Assembly: GCA_965204535.1 (NCBI GenBank)
Contig: CBDBEV010000001.1
Span: 1,888,001 to 1,952,000 of the forward strand
DNA length: 64,000 bases
From: a bacterium
GTDB lineage: Bacteria; UBA8248
Reading direction: 5' to 3'
Shown: one piece after another, positions 32,879-57,595 of the stretch
How the letters are laid out: each line of letters starts with the position of its first letter
How positions within the stretch are numbered: the first letter of the stretch is position 1
The notes under the pieces: generated by a model
What the model was told of the DNA's origin: nothing
The model's input: the letters and a program-made list of their open reading frames with translations, nothing else
Database searches by the model: none
Translations under genes and position numbers: made by a program

Positions 32879-33075
32879 GGGGAAGTGATCTTGAAGATTA
32901 AAGGGCGTCGCGCGGCGGCTGAGCGCTCGCCCCCGCCGCCGCATCTGGCGGGCTTCGCCGTGATGCGGCATAATGGGGACATCATGTTCGAGGATAAGCC
33001 TGAGCCCCGCTGATGGTACCCGCCGCGCGCGAACCGGGGCCGAACCGATACGGTTCGCACCTTGAGGGCCGACCA

Positions 33076-34266
33076 ATGACCCAGGAATTCCTCGCCGATT
33101 TAGCCGGCCGGATCGAAACGCTGAAGGCCGACGGCCTGTTCAAGCAGGAGCAGGTCATCTCCTCGCCGCAGCAGGGCGAGGTCACCCTCGAGACGGGTGC
33201 GGCCTGCATCAACCTGTGCGCCAACAACTACCTGGGCCTCTCCAATCACCCACGCCTCGTCGAGGCGGCCAGGGCCGCGCTGTCCCGGTATGGTTTCGGA
33301 ATGTCGTCGGTCCGGTTCATCTGCGGCACCCAGGTTCCCCACAAGCAGTTGGAGGAGCGTCTGAGCGCGTTCCTGGGAACCGAGGACACGATCCTCTTCC
33401 CGAGTTGTTTCGACGCCAACGCGGGGCTGTTCGAGAGCCTACTGGGCGAGGAGGATGCGATCATATCCGATGCGCTGAACCACGCGTCGATCATCGACGG
33501 CGTGCGTCTTTGCCGCGCGAAGCGGCTGCGCTACGCCAACAACGACATGAAGGACCTGGAAGCCAGGCTGAAAGAAGCGGCCGGCGCGCGCTACCGCCTG
33601 ATCGCCACGGACGGGGTCTTTTCGATGGACGGCTACATGGCCGATTTGCCGGCCATCTGCGACCTGGCGGAAAGACACGACGCCCTCGTGATGGTGGACG
33701 ACAGCCATGCCGTCGGCTTCGTCGGCGAAAACGGACGGGGCACGCCCGAGCGCTTTGGCGTCGCAGGAAGGGTCGACATCCTCACGGGGACCCTCGGCAA
33801 GGCGCTGGGAGGCGCGGCGGGGGGTTACGTCTCGGCCCGGCGCGTCATCGTGGAGTGGCTGCGCCAGAGCGCACGGCCCTACATCTTCTCCAACACGCCG
33901 GCCCCCGTCATCGCCCAGACCGGCCTGGCGGCGCTGGATCTTCTCGCCGGCTCGGCGGAGCTGCGGGATCGGCTCTGGCGCAATACGAGGCGCTTCCGCG
34001 CCGAAATGACCGCCCTGGGGTTCGAACTGCTGCCGGGCGAGCACCCCATCATCCCCCTGATGCTGCGCGACCCGAAGCTGGCGCAGAACTTCGCCGCCGG
34101 ACTCCGCGAGGAGGGCGTGTTGGTCACCGCGTTCTCGTTTCCCGTCGTCCCGCGCGGGGGGGACAGGATACGCACGCAGATGTCGGCGGCCCACGATACG
34201 GGAGACCTCGACCGCGCCATCGGCGCATTCGCCGAGGTGGGCCGCAAACTCGGGGTAATCACCTAG
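33076..34266 (+). CDS. kbl: Glycine C-acetyltransferase (2-amino-3-ketobutyrate CoA ligase)
   Basis: [53 protein letters not shown]. Confidence 0.95.
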
Positions 34267-34276
34267 CGCACGGGAG

Positions 34277-35077
34277 ATGAGCATGCTCACACTTGAAGGA
34301 CAGGCGGCTATCGTCACCGGCGGCGCGAGCGGCATCGGACGCGCCACCGCGCAGACGCTGGCGGATGCGGGTGCCGCCGTCGTCATCGCCGACCTGAACG
34401 AGGAGGCGGGTGCTGCGGCAGCGGAAGAGCTCAAAGCGGGGGGCGCCGAAGCGCTGTTCGTCCGGACCGACGTGGCCGAGGCCCGCGACGTCGAAGCGCT
34501 CATCGAGGCGGTGACGGAGCGGTTCGGCTCGCTGGAAATCCTGATGCACTTCGCGGGAATCGGTGTGGAAATACACGCTCTCGAAACCACTCTCGAGGAT
34601 TGGAACCGCATCATCGCCGTCAACCTCACGGGAAGTTTCCTGATGATGCAGGCCGCCGGCGCCGTGATGGTCGAGGCGGGATACGGCCGGATCGTGTCGA
34701 TGTCCTCAGTCGCGGGGCTGCGGGGCGGGACGGGGCGCGCGGCCTACGGCGCGTCCAAGGGCGGCGTCGCGGCGTTGACGAGGGTGTTGGCGACCGAGTG
34801 GGCGGAGTCCGGCGTGACGGTCAACACCCTGGCGCCGGGGCCCGTCGAAACCCCGCTGGTGAAGGAAATGCACGACGAGGAGACCCGCCGGGCCTATCTC
34901 CAGAGCGTTCCGATGAACCGCTACGGGGCGCCGGAGGAGGTGGCGGCCGCGGCCCTCTACCTGGCGCTGCCGCAATCGGGCTACATCAACGGCGTGACGC
35001 TGCCCGTGGACGGCGGCTTCGACGCCGGCGGCGTCATCAAGCGCGGCCCCGGAGGGTTCGGAGAGACGGCCTCCTGA
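34277..35077 (+). CDS. SDR family oxidoreductase
   Basis: TGGASGIG and YGASKGG motifs. Confidence 0.92.
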   Translation: MSMLTLEGQAAIVTGGASGIGRATAQTLADAGAAVVIADLNEEAGAAAAEELKAGGAEALFVRTDVAEARDVEALIEAVTERFGSLEILMHFAGIGVEIHALETTLEDWNRIIAVNLTGSFLMMQAAGAVMVEAGYGRIVSMSSVAGLRGGTGRAAYGASKGGVAALTRVLATEWAESGVTVNTLAPGPVETPLVKEMHDEETRRAYLQSVPMNRYGAPEEVAAAALYLALPQSGYINGVTLPVDGGFDAGGVIKRGPGGFGETAS

Positions 35078-35078
35078 A

Positions 35079-35638
35079 GCGGCTGTTGAAAAATCCTTGT
35101 CGGGAAGAATTCCTCCTTCTTCAGTTGGAATTCACCCCCCCAACCCCATGTCAGCGGGGCTTTTTGCTTTTACCCCCCTGTCAAGGGGGGGTAGGGGGGG
35201 TTGCCTTTCATGCAGGGGGCCTTTGAAGCTCCCTCATCGGTCGCGTCAAACCCTCGATACAGCCCTTGTGGACCTGTTCGGAATGAAGAAGTTTTTCGTT
35301 CTCCTCACCCTGAGTAGCCGCCGGAGGCAGCGTATCGAAGGGCAATCGCGCCCAATGCGGAAGCGATGCGTCGCACGCCGGTAGAGGTTTTTTGACCCTC
35401 TCTCTTCGGTCGGGTCAAATCTTCGATACAAACGCTCTTTCATCAGTCGCGTTTGACCAGCGCGCCTACTCGGGATGAGGTTTTGTAGCCGTCTGTGTGG
35501 TAGAAAGGAGAACCGCCTCGTAATCCGCCATACCATCCGCTCGCCCTCGACTCGAAAACCAACCCCCCCTACCCCCCCCTTAACAGGGGGGTAAAAAAAG
35601 AAGGCCCCCCTGACAAGGGGGGCTTTTTCAACAACCTC
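35079..35638. mobile_element. MITE-like element with IS1182-type ends filled with palindromic repeats
   Basis: GCGGCTGTTGAAAAA ... TTTTTCAACAACCTC flanked by TGAA on both sides; interior has CCCCCCTACCCCCCCTT-type and CCTGAGTAGC..GTATCGAAGG repeats. Confidence 0.7.
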
Positions 35639-35728
35639 TGAAGCACGGCGCGCATCCCCTCCGCATGGCGTTTTGGGCGCACGAAAGATTAAGCCCTTGA
35701 TGGATGGGATACGACGCCCCCTTCGCGC

Positions 35729-36181
35729 CTACCCGGGTCTCCTTGCGAAGAACTCGCGGTACTTGGGCGCCAGCGGCGCGTCGCGCCAGTCGAAGCCGGT
35801 GGCGTCGGCGGCCCCCTCCATCTCCCGCGCGCTCCAGTCGTTCTCATCCGCCAGATGGTTCAGCGAGCAAATCCCGGCCCGCCCCGTGGCCTTTCAGTGC
35901 ACGAACGCAGGGCCGTGGGCCTTGGCTTCTGAGAGCGCGCGGCTCACCTCGGCCAGCGAGGCGGGGCTGAACTCGGCCGGCGAGACGGGGACGTTCACGT
36001 AGCGCATCCCCAGCGCCTCGGCCTCTGCCTTGGCGCGCTCGGGCGGCAATTCGCCCTGGTCTTCTTCGGGAAAGCGCGTGTTGATGATGGTCTTGACGCC
36101 TCTTGCGGCGAGGGATTCCAGATCCGCGGGCTCGGGCTGCGAGCCGAAGGCGATGTCTTCAGATGCGTGGAAGTATTCCAT
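35729..36181 (-). CDS. Predicted selenoprotein: DUF442/Blh-like sulfurtransferase-phosphatase fold protein (150 aa, Sec at codon 96)
   Basis: GSQP..DL..L...GVKTIINTR..E, GMRYVNVPV, then GPAFVH-TGA(35894-35896)-KATGRAG, matching the HCxxxxR active-site loop; frame stays open to TAG at 35729; SECIS-like hairpin follows; selC in window. Confidence 0.85.
35862..35883 (-). promoter_or_regulatory. Putative bacterial SECIS of the DUF442-like gene
   Basis: mRNA UGA-AAGGCCACGG-GGCGGGC-CGGGAUUU-GCUCGCU: 6-7 bp stem starting about 11 nt after UGA, G-rich loop. Confidence 0.6.
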
Positions 36182-36203
36182 GTAAAAACTCCAGGTATGG
36201 GGG

Positions 36204-36764
36204 TTAATCCGCCGTCACGCCCTCTATCTTGAAGGGCTCGCCGTTCACCTCCACGGTGGAGTGGAGCGGCACCGGCTCGGTGATGAGGGCCTCGGCGAAA
36301 CAGCCGTTCTTCGCGTTCTTGATGAGGTGCGCGAGCTTCTCCGCAGGCTCGTCCGATTCGACTTTGAGATGCGTGTCCACGGCCTCCCACTTGTTGAACA
36401 CGGTGCCCTTGAGCACCGAGCCGCCCAGCAGCTTTCGGAACCGCACCGAGACGCTCGCTCCCTTGATCTCCATTTTCATCATGTGCGCGTACCGCGACAC
36501 CTGGGTGAGCAGTCAGAACCCCGTCGCCATGGCGAGATAGGCCATCGGCGTGGGGTATTGCGCCGTGCCGCCGATGTTCGCGCCCTCGTCGCAGAAAATC
36601 TCGAACTTGCCCGCCGTGCCGCGCTTGAGCTGCAGGGAGCCTTCGTGCATCTCGGTGTGGACGGTGTTGTCGGTATACAGCCCCCCTTTGGGGAGTTCGG
36701 GCTTGTCGATGACGCGCTCGCCCGGCACGGTGGAGGTGCTGTGTCCATCTACAGGACCTGTCAT
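36204..36764 (-). CDS. Predicted selenoprotein: OsmC/Ohr-like protein (186 aa, Sec at codon 84)
   Basis: ORFs 36513-36764 and 36204-36500 are in frame across one TGA (36513-36515): DEGANIGGTAQYPTPMAYLAMATGF-U-LLTQV. Second Cys in AKNGCFAE; GAGGAG RBS at the upstream start. Confidence 0.9.
36483..36500 (-). promoter_or_regulatory. Putative bacterial SECIS of the OsmC-like gene
   Basis: mRNA UGA-N12-GUG-U(bulge)-CGC-GGUAC-GCG-CAC; spacing, bulged U and GGU loop resemble the E. coli fdhF SECIS. Confidence 0.7.
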
Positions 36765-36982
36765 GGATTTCTCCTCATGAATATGTGGTTCGCATGATTT
36801 CGTCGATGCGCGCAGGATACGACAAACGCTTCGCCAAGTATAGTTTCCGGAGAGTGGAACCGGCGGGCTTGATTGAGGAATTCCGGCGAGCCTGCTAAAC
36901 AGGTGGTCACCAAATCTATGAATGGCCAGTGCGGCGAAGGGAGCGCGTTCCGCCGCCGCGCCCGGCCGGGAGGAATGCGGAT

Positions 36983-37381
36983 ATGTTCAACAAATTTCAT
37001 CACATCGGCGTCGCGGTGAAGGACATGGACGCCGCCATCGCCCTGTACGAGGGCATGGGCGCGAAGCTGCTCGCGCGGGAGACCTCCGCCGACGGCGCGA
37101 CCGATCTGGCCATGCTGGATTTGGGCGGCGACCTCATCGAGCCCATCTCGCCCATCCAGCAGGATTCGCCTCTCGCCAAGTTTATCGAGGAGCGCGGCGA
37201 GGGCCTCCACCACGTGGCCTTCGACGTGAAGAACATCGACGGCGTGCTGGCCGACATGAAGGCGCAGGGCTTCGAGTTGATTGATGAGAAATCGAGGCCC
37301 GGCTTCGGCGGACACCTCATCGCCTTCATCAAGCCCAAGAGCACGATGGGCACGCTGTGGGAGCTGGTGGAGGACGTTTAA
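36983..37381 (+). CDS. VOC family protein, methylmalonyl-CoA epimerase-like
   Basis: HHIGVAV, GEGLHHVAFDV, AFIKPKSTMGTLWELVE. Confidence 0.85.
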   Translation: MFNKFHHIGVAVKDMDAAIALYEGMGAKLLARETSADGATDLAMLDLGGDLIEPISPIQQDSPLAKFIEERGEGLHHVAFDVKNIDGVLADMKAQGFELIDEKSRPGFGGHLIAFIKPKSTMGTLWELVEDV

Positions 37382-37385
37382 GTCC

Positions 37386-37499
37386 GTAGGGGCGATCCCC
37401 CGTGGTCGCCCATTCGTCCATTCAAGGACAGGCACGGGGGCCTGTCCCTACGCCTCGTTTCAAGCGCGGGTTTCCGTAGGGGCGCTTCGCGAAGCGCCC
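37386..37499. repeat. GTAG-type REP cluster
   Basis: GTAGGGGCGATCCCCCGTGGTCGCCC, GGACAGGCACGGGGGCCTGTCCCTAC, GTAGGGGCGCTTCGCGAAGCGCCC. Confidence 0.8.
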
Positions 37500-37581
37500 G
37501 CACCCTTCGGTATGGTCCGTTCCCGAGCGGCGGGGCGGCCCCGAGGAGGGGCTGCCGTAAGGTTCAGGAAAAATTATTTCC

Positions 37582-38343
37582 TCAGTCGCCCCGTACGAGG
37601 CCTTCTCTCACTTTCGGCATCGTTTGCGCGATGTCCCGTATGGGCAGGCCGTGCGTCGGCGCGACGACTTCGACGTCCAGTTCATCCATCAACTCTTCGA
37701 GCTTGTCGGCGTAGACGTTCATGTCGGTGAAGGTCGTCCAGTACAGGGCGCGTTCGGCGAAAACGCCCAGCACGTCGACCAGATCGAGCGAGGTGGCCTC
37801 TTCGGCGAACATCCCGCAGTGGCCGTCCGTATGGTAGTGGCTGTAGGCGAAGCCGTCTCCCGGAAACAGCACGCGCCCTTTGGTCTCGAACCCCCAGAGA
37901 GAACTCCGCAAGTCCCGGATCACCGGCTCCACGGCCATGAACTTCGTATCGCCCAGGTCGATGGCGTCTCCCACGCGCATCTCCCGGAAGCGGCCCTCGT
38001 GCTGGGGAAACGCCAGGTGGTAGTCGCACATGTCCCCGTGGATGGTGAGGTCGGGGTATCGGTCGAGCACGCGGCCCAGACCGCCCGAGTGGGGGGTCTC
38101 CTGATGGGTCAGGAACAGGTGTTCGAGCGGGCCTCCGCCGCGGGCCAGGATGTCCCTCATCTGGCGCTCGATGATGGGGAAATCCTTGGGGTGTCCCGTC
38201 TCTATCAGCATGGAGGCTTCTGAGCCGATGATGAGGAAGGCCGCGTTGTAGGAGTGATAGATCTTGCCCTGGGAGTGTTGGACCAGGCAGTCGCCGAGCC
38301 AGAAGACGCCGGGCGATATTTCGCGGGGCAGGGGATGGCTCAT
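37582..38343 (-). CDS. Metallo-beta-lactamase-fold protein (FprA/ODP-like di-metal domain)
   Basis: LIETG, THQETPHSGG, LFPGDGF, VAPTHG. Confidence 0.82.
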   Translation of the reverse strand: MSHPLPREISPGVFWLGDCLVQHSQGKIYHSYNAAFLIIGSEASMLIETGHPKDFPIIERQMRDILARGGGPLEHLFLTHQETPHSGGLGRVLDRYPDLTIHGDMCDYHLAFPQHEGRFREMRVGDAIDLGDTKFMAVEPVIRDLRSSLWGFETKGRVLFPGDGFAYSHYHTDGHCGMFAEEATSLDLVDVLGVFAERALYWTTFTDMNVYADKLEELMDELDVEVVAPTHGLPIRDIAQTMPKVREGLVRGD

Positions 38344-38351
38344 GTGTGCTC

Positions 38352-39215
38352 CTATCTTTCGAGGCCCAGCGCGACGTATTGGGGTTTGACGACGCCCCGG
38401 TCGAGACCCGCCAAAACCTCATCCAGCACGGCGAATTGTTGCTCGACCAGACGGCGCCCGCGCAGGATGGCGCCGTATCCCGGAGCGATGGTCTCGATGT
38501 CGTAGCGCTCGAAGACTTCGGTGATGCCTTTTCGGATGGAGTCCGTCCTCGCGCCCTCGAGCCACCAGTAGCGCGTGTTCAGCAGGAACGAGCGGACGAA
38601 AGCGGTCGTCGTCACCTCGTCTTCATCCAGCAGCCAGGGGCCTTCCGCCCCCTCCGCCCAGAGGTGGCTGAACATGTCCGAGGTGAACAGGATACGCGTG
38701 GCCGCATCGTAAATCCAGCGGGTGCTGATGAGGCGGATCGGCGCGTTCATCACCTCGATGTATCTATCGCCGATTTCAAGGGGATGGAGCGGCTTCAGTA
38801 TCGTGGTGGGCAGGATGGGGTTGCCGTTGTTCGCTTCGTTCGGCTCGATCGCTTCGAACTCGAGCCACTCGTTGATTTCCGGCACGGGGGCGAGGCACTC
38901 CACCACGTTGAAGCGCTTGGCGACCGCCATGGCGTTTCCCACCGACATGAATTCGTTGATGCGCAGCGGGAGCAGGTGCAGCGGCGTATCGGGCTCGATG
39001 AGGGATTCCAGCTGCGCCAGAATCTCGGCTTCGTGGGCGGCGTAGCCCGTGTCGAGCAGGAGCGCGCCCGCGTCTTCTTTCAGGAGAAAGCAGTTCGATA
39101 CGCTGTGCCCGCGCGCGCTGATGGGGTATGCGCTGATGCGCCCGTCCAGCGGGAACGTGTTGTGGAGGGCGTAGACCTTTCCCTCCGCGAGTTCGGCAAT
39201 CCCGGAATACGACAT
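38352..39215 (-). CDS. MBL-fold protein with degenerate metal site
   Basis: LLLDTG, LFTSDMF, IAPGYG scaffold, but the His-rich motif is replaced by LRINEFMSVGN. Confidence 0.75.
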   Translation of the reverse strand: MSYSGIAELAEGKVYALHNTFPLDGRISAYPISARGHSVSNCFLLKEDAGALLLDTGYAAHEAEILAQLESLIEPDTPLHLLPLRINEFMSVGNAMAVAKRFNVVECLAPVPEINEWLEFEAIEPNEANNGNPILPTTILKPLHPLEIGDRYIEVMNAPIRLISTRWIYDAATRILFTSDMFSHLWAEGAEGPWLLDEDEVTTTAFVRSFLLNTRYWWLEGARTDSIRKGITEVFERYDIETIAPGYGAILRGRRLVEQQFAVLDEVLAGLDRGVVKPQYVALGLER

Positions 39216-39405: not shown

Positions 39406-39852
39406 CACTCCCCCCTTGAGGGGGTCGGGCTTTCCCCTCGGGAAGCCCGACAGAGGCCGAGTCCTTTGGACGAAGGCCGATGTGGTGGGGGGACATGCCA
39501 CAGAAAAAGCTCCCCCCACCGACTCGTTTGCGGGCTTCGCCCTTACCTCGTCGACTCCCCCTCAAGGGGGGAGTGAAGCGTGACTTCCACCGAACTCCCC
39601 AACCCCCTTCTCAGGGGATAAAGGCAACCCCCCCTACCCCCCCTTGTCAGGGGGGTATGAAAAGGCGACGCCCGCCGCCGGGAGAGGGGCTTTTGTTTTT
39701 TCTTGCCCCCTGACATGGGGGTCTTTCTTTTTTTGCCCCCCTGACAAGGGGGGGTAGGGGGGGGTGGTTTTCGAGTCGAGGGAGGGCCGGCGGGGAGAGA
39801 GCGATTTCTCGGCTTGGGAGTTTGCTCGTCATTCCGGTGGATGCCGGAATGA
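39406..39852. repeat. Cluster of palindromic intergenic repeats
   Basis: CACTCCCCCCTTGAGGGGG...CCCCCTCAAGGGGGGAGTG element (39406-39575), inverted CCCCCCTACCCCCCCTTGTCAGGGGGG pair, and GTCATTCCGGTGGATGCCGGAATGAC hairpin. Confidence 0.8.
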
Positions 39853-56006: not shown

Positions 56007-56041
56007 AAAGCAACCCCCCCTACCCCCCCTTGTCAGGGGGG
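56007..56041. repeat. CCCCCCTACCCCCCCTTGTCAGGGGGG repeat copy
   Basis: Same unit as near 15193, 35174, 35564, 39628, 39737 and 46383. Confidence 0.75.
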
Positions 56042-57498: not shown

Positions 57499-57595
57499 GG
57501 GAGCGCATCGGTGCTGGTGTGCCGCCTGGACTTCAAATCCAGTGGACGGGGCTAATCACTTCGTCGGTGGGTTCGACTCCCACGCGTTCCCGCCA
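57499..57595 (+). tRNA. selC: tRNA-Sec(TCA)
   Basis: 8-bp acceptor stem GGGAGCGC/GCGTTCCC, 6-bp D stem with TGGT loop, CTGGA-CT-TCA-AA-TCCAG, long variable arm, 5-bp T stem, GCCA end. Confidence 0.97.

Follow-up and report, generated by a model that had tools for sequence, protein, structure and literature searches.

Two adjacent genes on the minus strand of a 64,000-nucleotide (nt) stretch of bacterial DNA (C2:1888001-1952000, hereafter the window) are each interrupted by one in-frame TGA codon, which raises the question of whether these codons end translation or specify selenocysteine (Sec, U) and, if they specify Sec, whether the two products act together. The window belongs to a 4.56-Mb source genome in two contigs (G000); the host is a sponge-associated Nitrospinota-type bacterium, and the runs, DNA as well as RNA, that hold this stretch are mostly labelled sponge metagenome. 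In the open reading frame listing made with translation table 11, the upstream gene (A) is split into pieces of 83 and 98 amino acids (aa) and the downstream gene (B) into pieces of 95 and 30 aa; with TGA read as U, they form single frames of 186 and 150 aa. The comparisons presented here indicate that both are very probably true selenoprotein genes, with Sec at the column of a catalytic Cys and, after it, a hairpin resembling a selenocysteine insertion sequence (SECIS):

36764..36204, minus strand: gene A, predicted OsmC-like selenoprotein (NF041052, PF02566) of 186 aa, with U84 in the motif F-U-L-L-T (UxxT)
36515-36513, minus strand: in-frame TGA of gene A, codon 84, predicted Sec
36483..36500, minus strand: SECIS-like hairpin of gene A, 3 bp, a bulged U and 4 bp with the loop GUA, from folding and covariation
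36771..36776, minus strand: Shine-Dalgarno-like GAGGAG, 6 nt 5' of the gene A ATG, by sequence inspection
36181..35729, minus strand: gene B, DUF442 (PF04273) protein of 150 aa by Pfam match and structural model, with U96 in the loop H-U-K-A-T-G-R (H-C-X4-R)
35896-35894, minus strand: in-frame TGA of gene B, codon 96, predicted Sec
35862..35883, minus strand: SECIS-like hairpin of gene B, 7 bp (two of them G-U) with an 8-nt loop, from folding and codon invariance
36189..36192, minus strand: Shine-Dalgarno-like GGAG, 7 nt 5' of the gene B ATG, within the A-B spacer, by sequence inspection

A preliminary description of this locus had noted two co-oriented genes 22 nt apart, each with its own ribosome-binding site, a single in-frame TGA, an open frame beyond it and a hairpin close by on the 3' side. 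The sequence agrees on all these points, the spacer running from the TAA of gene A (36206-36204) to the ATG of gene B (36181).

The genome is equipped to decode UGA as Sec. Profile searches of the source genome for selA, selB and selD, which the preliminary description had proposed to look for, found all three over curated cut-offs (572.8, 389 and 331.5 bits, respectively), selD itself having one TGA inside. ARAGORN also recovered the canonical tRNA-Sec that had been reported in the window:

57499..57595, plus strand: tRNA-Sec, anticodon TCA

Elsewhere TGA is an ordinary stop. The short-chain dehydrogenase/reductase (SDR) gene at 34277-35077 ends at such a codon under table 11 and runs on only if TGA is read as U, and several orthologues of A and B themselves terminate in TGA.

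The in-frame TGA is kept in every full-length relative of either gene. Matches to gene A were found in 31 of 41 related genomes, and exactly one TGA was present in 100 of the 106 places listed, down to 35% identity; of the remaining six, one is an N-terminal fragment and five match only weakly, at 24-29% identity. With P0002 as the query for gene B, 26 of 41 genomes gave matches, and among the 49 places listed, 45 had exactly one TGA and one had two, the other three being a fragment at a contig end and two matches that are weak and partial. A family profile applied to 51 genomes of the phylum gave matches in 35, all of one family (34 of 41 without G000, and 0 of 9 in the other three families). 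The TGA was present in 57 of these 59 places, alone in 53, together with a TAA in three and with a second TGA in one. The three matches with both TGA and TAA come from three genomes of genus g2 (G054:C92, G056:C338 and G057:C95).

No Cys form of gene B was found in the phylum genomes searched. Beyond the phylum, a Candidatus Tectomicrobia metagenome-assembled genome (MAG) has TGA at the same column in a protein 51% identical (H-U-R-E-G-E-R-A-G-I-C-S), with nearly the same hairpin, and an Abditibacterium MAG has Cys there at 28% identity. A search of JGI metagenomes for the DNA of P0154 (94 aa), which represents another lineage with a shortened protein, returned only Cys-type relatives. The source genome itself holds a second Sec-DUF442 gene (C1:709102-709545, L057), 45% identical to gene B and with the same hairpin. 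A tree of gene B sequences separates the clades B1 and B2 deeply. One B2 paralogue, L079 (G010:C5:285649-286089), has a second in-frame TGA in place of a conserved Trp (F-D-W to F-D-U), and in its hairpin a C-to-T change turns a G-C pair into G-U.

In both genes the TGA falls on the column of the catalytic Cys. U84 and C155 of gene A align with both Cys residues of the OsmC-like structure PDB 3cje, and C155, in K-N-G-C-F, is Cys in 42 of the 42 family sequences examined. For gene B, a profile of 12 family members retrieved 6070 proteins at E <= 1e-3 and 873 at E <= 1e-10 from 1.84 billion representatives, and the top 147 matches were aligned with four reference sequences (n=151). At the U96 column this alignment has C in 135 sequences, S in 6, D in 3, G in 1, L in 1 and a gap in 5; the gaps are due to gene calls that were cut short, and two C entries stand in for U. 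As H95 is kept in 148 and R101 in 140 of the 151 sequences, the TGA of gene B sits on the Cys of an H-C-X4-R-A-G motif. P0034, a full-length Cys form 53% identical to gene B, reads FVHCKAIGRAG, and P0061 to P0066, which are 33-37% identical, have C-X5-R instead (VHCRRGKDRTG). Thus, the homologues largely carry TGA or Cys at these columns, as the proposal of two selenoproteins had anticipated.

We compared the hairpins with published rules for bacterial SECIS (bSECIS) elements, i.e., a loop of 3-9 nt, a stem of 4-16 bp, a G within the first two nucleotides of the loop, a distance of 16-37 nt between UGA and loop and a minimum free energy of -7.5 kcal/mol or lower. The gene A hairpin, GUG-U-CGCG-GUA-CGCG-CAC, begins 12 nt after the UGA and lies within these limits (loop GUA, 7 bp with a bulge, spacing of 20 nt, -8.4 kcal/mol). 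So does that of gene B, G-GCGGGC-CGGGAUUU-GCUCGC-U, which begins 10-11 nt after the UGA (loop CGGGAUUU, 7 bp, spacing of 17 nt, -10.5 kcal/mol). The SECIS of Escherichia coli fdhF has two short stems separated by a bulged U and capped by an apical loop with G(G)U, about 11-12 nt 3' of the UGA. The gene A hairpin matches it in layout but not in sequence; the gene B hairpin differs from it in having an 8-nt loop and no bulge.

Constraint on the RNA is visible in the alignments. For gene A, 31 distinct sequences among 42 were compared (20 orthologues and 22 paralogues or more distant members). In three of the six stem pairs both partners have changed (C-G to G-C or A-U, G-C to A-U, and U-A to G-C), giving 19 compensated cells, a covariation score that none of 500 shuffles reached and that was far lower in slid registers. 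The orthologue clade uses the bulged-U register and the paralogues an unbulged 6-bp stem, and the unpaired cells at the two outer pairs come mostly from the orthologue clade. Residues encoded at these outer pairs (S/A/G/K and H/S) co-vary with the pairing, and codons 91 (CGG, 42/42) and 92 (TAC, 41/41) are monomorphic. For gene B, 33 distinct sequences among 42, drawn from orthologues, from paralogues whose proteins are 36-46% identical and from the Tectomicrobia copy, were paired in 231 of 231 stem cells; the only common change was G-U to A-U, in 15 of the 33. Both hairpins are within the coding sequence, and that of gene B overlaps codons 100-107 (G-R-A-G-I-C-S-L) and with them codons of its own active-site loop. 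Among 43 conserved degenerate columns of gene B, 38 use two to six codons, and the five monomorphic ones (GGG100, GCC102, GGG103, TGC105 and TCG106, each a single codon in 39-41 of 39-41 sequences) all lie inside the hairpin, a placement with a chance of about 2e-5 (hypergeometric, calculated by hand). Judged from these alignments, both hairpins are under RNA-level constraint, expressed as compensatory changes in A and as monomorphic codons in B.

Do these observations leave room for the TGAs as real stops, with A and B being pseudogenes or encoding truncated proteins of 83 and 95 aa? Public gene calls do end at this codon. Among 64 database homologues of gene B, 55 are exactly 95 aa long and end in …VH, one of these 95-aa entries being named 'sulfur transferase domain-containing protein [Nitrospinae bacterium]', and a 53-aa entry is an orphaned C-terminal piece; this bears out the suggestion that ordinary gene callers truncate the gene. 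The second TGA of the gene B paralogue L079 also fits real stops, and such copies may be decaying, or L079 may contain a sequencing or assembly error. Against this, conservation at the protein level continues past the TGA in about 100 places for A and 57 for B, down to 35-36% identity, and the TGA coincides with a catalytic Cys column in both genes. The resolving Cys of A and the catalytic Arg of B are encoded 3' of it, and the latter part of B could not be made alone, because the next in-frame start leaves 30 aa, with the Arg and the rest of the P-loop lying between. Given in addition the conserved hairpins, with covariation, and the full Sec machinery, we regard termination at these codons as very improbable. 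We give just as little credence to recoding of UGA to another residue such as Cys or Trp, by near-cognate reading or through a lineage-wide change of code. Nothing specific speaks for such recoding, although selenium limitation can lead to Cys insertion at Sec codons. Normal termination at TGA is seen both in this window and among relatives; the recoded codons occur singly, at Cys columns, with a SECIS-like hairpin after each, and tRNA-Sec, selA, selB and selD are all present. Several points do weigh against Sec insertion. The case for selenium incorporation rests wholly on comparison. The gene B hairpin has no double compensatory change, so that shuffle controls are uninformative for it, and its invariance overlaps the conserved peptide GRAGICS, which partly confounds protein and RNA constraints; only the codon-level analysis separates the two. 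Single-sequence folds were no better than those of shuffles in this G+C-rich DNA (z -0.1 to -1.8), and the argument that the observed features exceed chance therefore depends on comparison as well. An Rfam scan of 35000-37500, at E up to 10, returned no SECIS or other relevant family. With these points taken into account, the combination of TGA at the catalytic-Cys column, conserved hairpins and full Sec machinery makes it very probable that both enzymes are selenoproteins, as had been proposed.

Gene A turned out to be familiar. It scored 168.2 bits against NCBIfam NF041052, 'OsmC-related (seleno)protein' (cut-off 95), and 49.1 bits against Pfam OsmC (PF02566; cut-off 27.5). Its motif F-U-L-L-T (residues 83-87) has the form UxxT, which is listed for an OsmC-like selenoprotein family in the Sargasso Sea study of Zhang, Fomenko & Gladyshev (2005; PMC1088965), and an OsmC-like family with UxxT also appears in Table 1 of a 2026 catalogue of 119 selenoprotein families (PMC13188914). 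Gene A agrees with that family in its UxxT motif, in a second conserved Cys and in having a SECIS-like hairpin 3' of the UGA, and it shows no essential difference. It is an ordinary member of a known family (COG1765/PF02566) and nothing new; the OsmC-like half of the locus, which had been presented as hidden, has been in print since 2005. In OsmC/Ohr proteins the second conserved Cys is the resolving position. By homology to these proteins, gene A would act as a hydroperoxide reductase-type enzyme, in which the substrate would oxidise U84, which C155 would then resolve. The source genome contains three gene A paralogues. Its further OsmC-like genes are located as follows:

C1:444930-445478 and C2:2519419-2519943, source genome G000: two further predicted OsmC-like selenoprotein genes (L058 and L059)

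The L059 paralogue is located immediately 5' of an AIR-synthase-related (PurM/SelD-like) gene, and a gene of the TauE/SafE sulfite-exporter family is close by.

Gene B has the fold of the DUF442 family. It matched PF04273 (BLH_phosphatase) over residues 7-102 with 48.3 bits, over the gathering cut-off of 26.1. The AlphaFold2 model has a predicted local distance difference test (pLDDT) score of 95.4 and a predicted template modelling (pTM) score of 0.91, and its best Foldseek matches in the PDB are the DUF442 structures 3gxh and 2f46 (E ~5e-8, template modelling (TM) score 0.72-0.80), followed by dual-specificity and protein tyrosine phosphatases (DSP/PTP). With the DUF442 domains known elsewhere (the N-terminal domain of Blh in Xylella and Agrobacterium, the DUF442 of the Cupriavidus sulfide:quinone oxidoreductase (SQR), 2f46 and 3gxh), gene B shares the Pfam family, the PTP-like fold and the H-C-X4-R-A-G loop with the catalytic residue at the same column. 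It differs from them in having Sec for Cys, in standing alone at 150 aa, unfused to ETHE1 or SQR, in being only 20-35% identical, and in an extra Cys at +9, C105, which is clade-specific and absent from most Cys-type relatives. Measured activities are reported for two such domains: rhodanese activity for that of Xylella Blh, with thiosulfate:cyanide and thiosulfate:glutathione (GSH) transfer (PMC5823870), and rhodanese-type activity, with the catalytic residue Cys94, for that of Cupriavidus SQR (PMC9163753). By analogy, gene B, with Sec for Cys, would bind sulfane sulfur (or selenium) in the form of a Se-S(e) adduct, for transfer to a thiol acceptor. Its sulfur-transferase activity is extrapolated from relatives of 20-35% identity, since gene B stays below the cut-offs of the closer profiles: it scored 48.9 bits against TIGR01244 (cut-off 85.85), and 54 against 625 for the Blh equivalog NF040641, aligning to only the first 130 of 423 profile positions. 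Gene B is a member of PF04273; it works like TIGR01244/Blh proteins at most and does not belong to those narrower families. A parallel is offered by the rhodanese-like selenoproteins listed in Table 1 of the 2026 catalogue (PF00581, forms 1-5; PMC13188914), which, like gene B, have Sec for the active-site Cys in a loop of sulfur-transferase type. Their chemistry should be comparable, with a Se-S adduct for the Cys persulfide, but their fold and Pfam family are unrelated to those of gene B (rhodanese versus PTP-like DUF442).

We asked how far the pairing of A and B extends. Of the 21 loci L080-L100 (20 from the genus, plus L098 from genus g3), 20 have A upstream of B within a 3-kb flank, the exception being L098; A was near B in 0 of 21 other loci (paralogues, other genera and other phyla). 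The conserved adjacency foreseen in the preliminary description thus holds within the genus and not elsewhere. Across 23 genomes of the genus, 22 of which gave a value, the gap between A and B is 30 nt or less in 17, 76-211 nt in three, 700 nt in one and 6.8 kb in one. Farther upstream of the pair there are usually the same gene without a family match, a metallo-beta-lactamase (MBL)-fold gene and a divergent methylmalonyl-CoA epimerase gene. The B2 paralogue, and B in two other genera, have the order Transglut_core2, B, ilvD instead, the Transglut_core2 (SirB1-like) gene ending 24-68 nt before the Sec-DUF442 gene (L102:2135-2977, L120:2014-2946 and L098:1424-2266) and ilvD following it. This B2, or ancestral, context of B beside the transglutaminase-like gene and ilvD is more widely conserved than its pairing with OsmC. 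On this distribution, the A-B juxtaposition is a young, genus-level acquisition. Such a pairing is compatible with selected co-expression and is weak evidence for a shared mechanism.

A terminator scan found eight terminator-like sites in total, compared with 1.8 expected. None lies between genes A and B, and minus-strand sites occur only downstream of B, among them the following:

35604..35623, minus strand: terminator-like hairpin GCCCCCC-TTGTCA-GGGGGGC followed by CTTCTTTTTT, about 105 nt past the gene B stop, from the terminator scan

Because of this placement, the two genes are probably co-transcribed. Metatranscriptome contigs at 85-99% identity, from sponge or marine samples (four libraries, two studies), cover both genes; one of 2115 nt covers 35735-36798, and shorter contigs run across the A-B junction and across the gene A TGA. 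This coverage is a weak hint of expression, as contigs from RNA libraries may include DNA and so prove neither transcription nor strand nor a single transcript; uncovered parts carry no meaning. One contig, from RNA run X15, ends at 36798 on the minus strand, 34 nt 5' of the gene A ATG, and continues into Illumina adapter; this end may represent a transcript 5' end.

What, then, do the two products do, separately or together? Many DSP/PTP phosphatases follow the DUF442 entries among the structural matches of gene B, weak Pfam matches to PTP-NADK and PTP-SAK exist, and the PDB depositors named the DUF442 structures 'putative phosphatase'. Gene B could on these grounds be a phosphatase-fold hydrolase or reductase (a phosphatase or an arsenate-reductase-like enzyme) with a Sec nucleophile and no sulfur-transferase function. 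We consider this quite unlikely, given that its loop is C(U)-X4-R, unlike the C-X5-R P-loop of classical PTP/DSP enzymes, that its best family match is PF04273 with no phosphatase family over threshold, and that the DUF442 domains assayed elsewhere have rhodanese activity (PMC5823870, PMC9163753). A dedicated relay of two selenoproteins, in which B would reduce the OsmC-like protein or deliver sulfane sulfur or selenium to it, or the reverse, had been put forward in the preliminary description. The spacing of 22-25 nt with no terminator between, the tight arrangement in 17 of 23 genomes of the genus and the clade-specific second Cys of gene B (C105) would suit it. So would precedent, since other operon-paired selenoproteins are known from a review to share one pathway. 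The operons named there (grdA-grdB, prdB-prdC, Prx/SelW-like, Prx-like/AhpD-like, SAO and Tso) resemble A-B in consisting of two adjacent, co-oriented selenoprotein genes, but an OsmC-like plus DUF442 pairing is not among them, and A-B is limited to one genus. In two other genera, and as B2, gene B stands between the Transglut_core2 gene and ilvD, and the Tectomicrobia copy has other neighbours. Even within the genus, A and B are 700 nt apart in G009 and 6.8 kb apart in G015; gene A is moreover widespread without B, families f3 and f4 having A and no B, and the TGC codon of C105 is part of the SECIS stem, so that conservation of this Cys may be an RNA effect. The relay thus draws on adjacency only, and we judge it unlikely. 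The same holds, taken as a whole, for a broader scenario in which Sec-DUF442 would be a new family of at least two phyla with its SECIS inside its own active-site-loop codons, a duplicate of which would have been recruited behind the OsmC-like gene to form a Sec-carrier/peroxidase-type relay. We favour with considerable confidence the explanation that A and B are both read through with Sec by the SelA, SelB, SelD and tRNA-Sec of this genome and are two independent, co-expressed selenoenzymes; we take them as independent because their juxtaposition arose within one genus.

The surroundings of the pair were inspected for partners. An MBL-fold gene (37582-38343, minus strand) was considered as the persulfide dioxygenase (PDO) partner of a split Blh and was rejected, as it matches a flavodiiron diiron domain and not ETHE1. 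Its best matches are the diiron domains of flavodiiron proteins such as FprA and NorV, and the divergent methylmalonyl-CoA epimerase gene lies between it and gene A. No PDO or SQR gene was present among the genes examined next to B (33013-39215). The similarity of the MBL-fold product to the diiron part of flavodiiron O2/NO reductases makes the neighbourhood hint at oxidative-stress defence, not at a split Blh. The MBL-fold product is a stand-alone diiron domain of 253 aa without a flavodoxin domain. The gene that precedes it, at 38352-39215 on the minus strand, encodes a conserved protein of 287 aa that neither Pfam nor NCBIfam models match, and both genes are syntenic with A-B across the genus.

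Intergenic regions of the window contain C6-7/N4-6/G6-7 palindromes (CCCCCC-TGACAA/TTGTCA/TTAACA-GGGGGG) at six sites, with 10 pattern matches compared with 0.12 expected:

35173-35191: palindrome
35572-35591: palindrome
35605-35622: palindrome
39637-39655: palindrome
39736-39754: palindrome
56023-56041: palindrome

One of these is also the terminator-like hairpin of gene B, and some have the form of terminator-like hairpins in both directions. RNA-library contigs reach a very high summed depth at 35551-35601 (274 in X15), as expected for a dispersed repeat resembling repetitive extragenic palindromic (REP) elements.

A description of Sec-containing DUF442 proteins was not found in the literature searched, which did not extend to subscription papers, and Table 1 of the 119-family catalogue (PMC13188914), where OsmC-like proteins are listed, has no entry for PF04273, DUF442, TIGR01244 or a phosphatase. 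Gene B is likely an uncatalogued selenium form of the DUF442 sulfur-transferase, and its standing as a new selenoprotein family of a known kind is well supported by the comparisons. It would add a PTP-fold DUF442 family to the bacterial selenoproteins, one that is systematically mis-annotated in public data as a 95-aa 'sulfur transferase domain' fragment; a curated hidden Markov model (HMM) with a Sec flag would mend dozens of gene calls in sponge-associated Nitrospinota-type MAGs. The hairpin of gene B, with five codons invariant among paralogues 36-46% identical and across two phyla, shows the extent to which codon choice in an active-site loop can be fixed by an RNA signal. Finally, gene B on the one hand, and P0034 with about 870 Cys-type relatives on the other, would form a natural Sec/Cys pair that bears on what selenium buys a persulfide-carrying active site.

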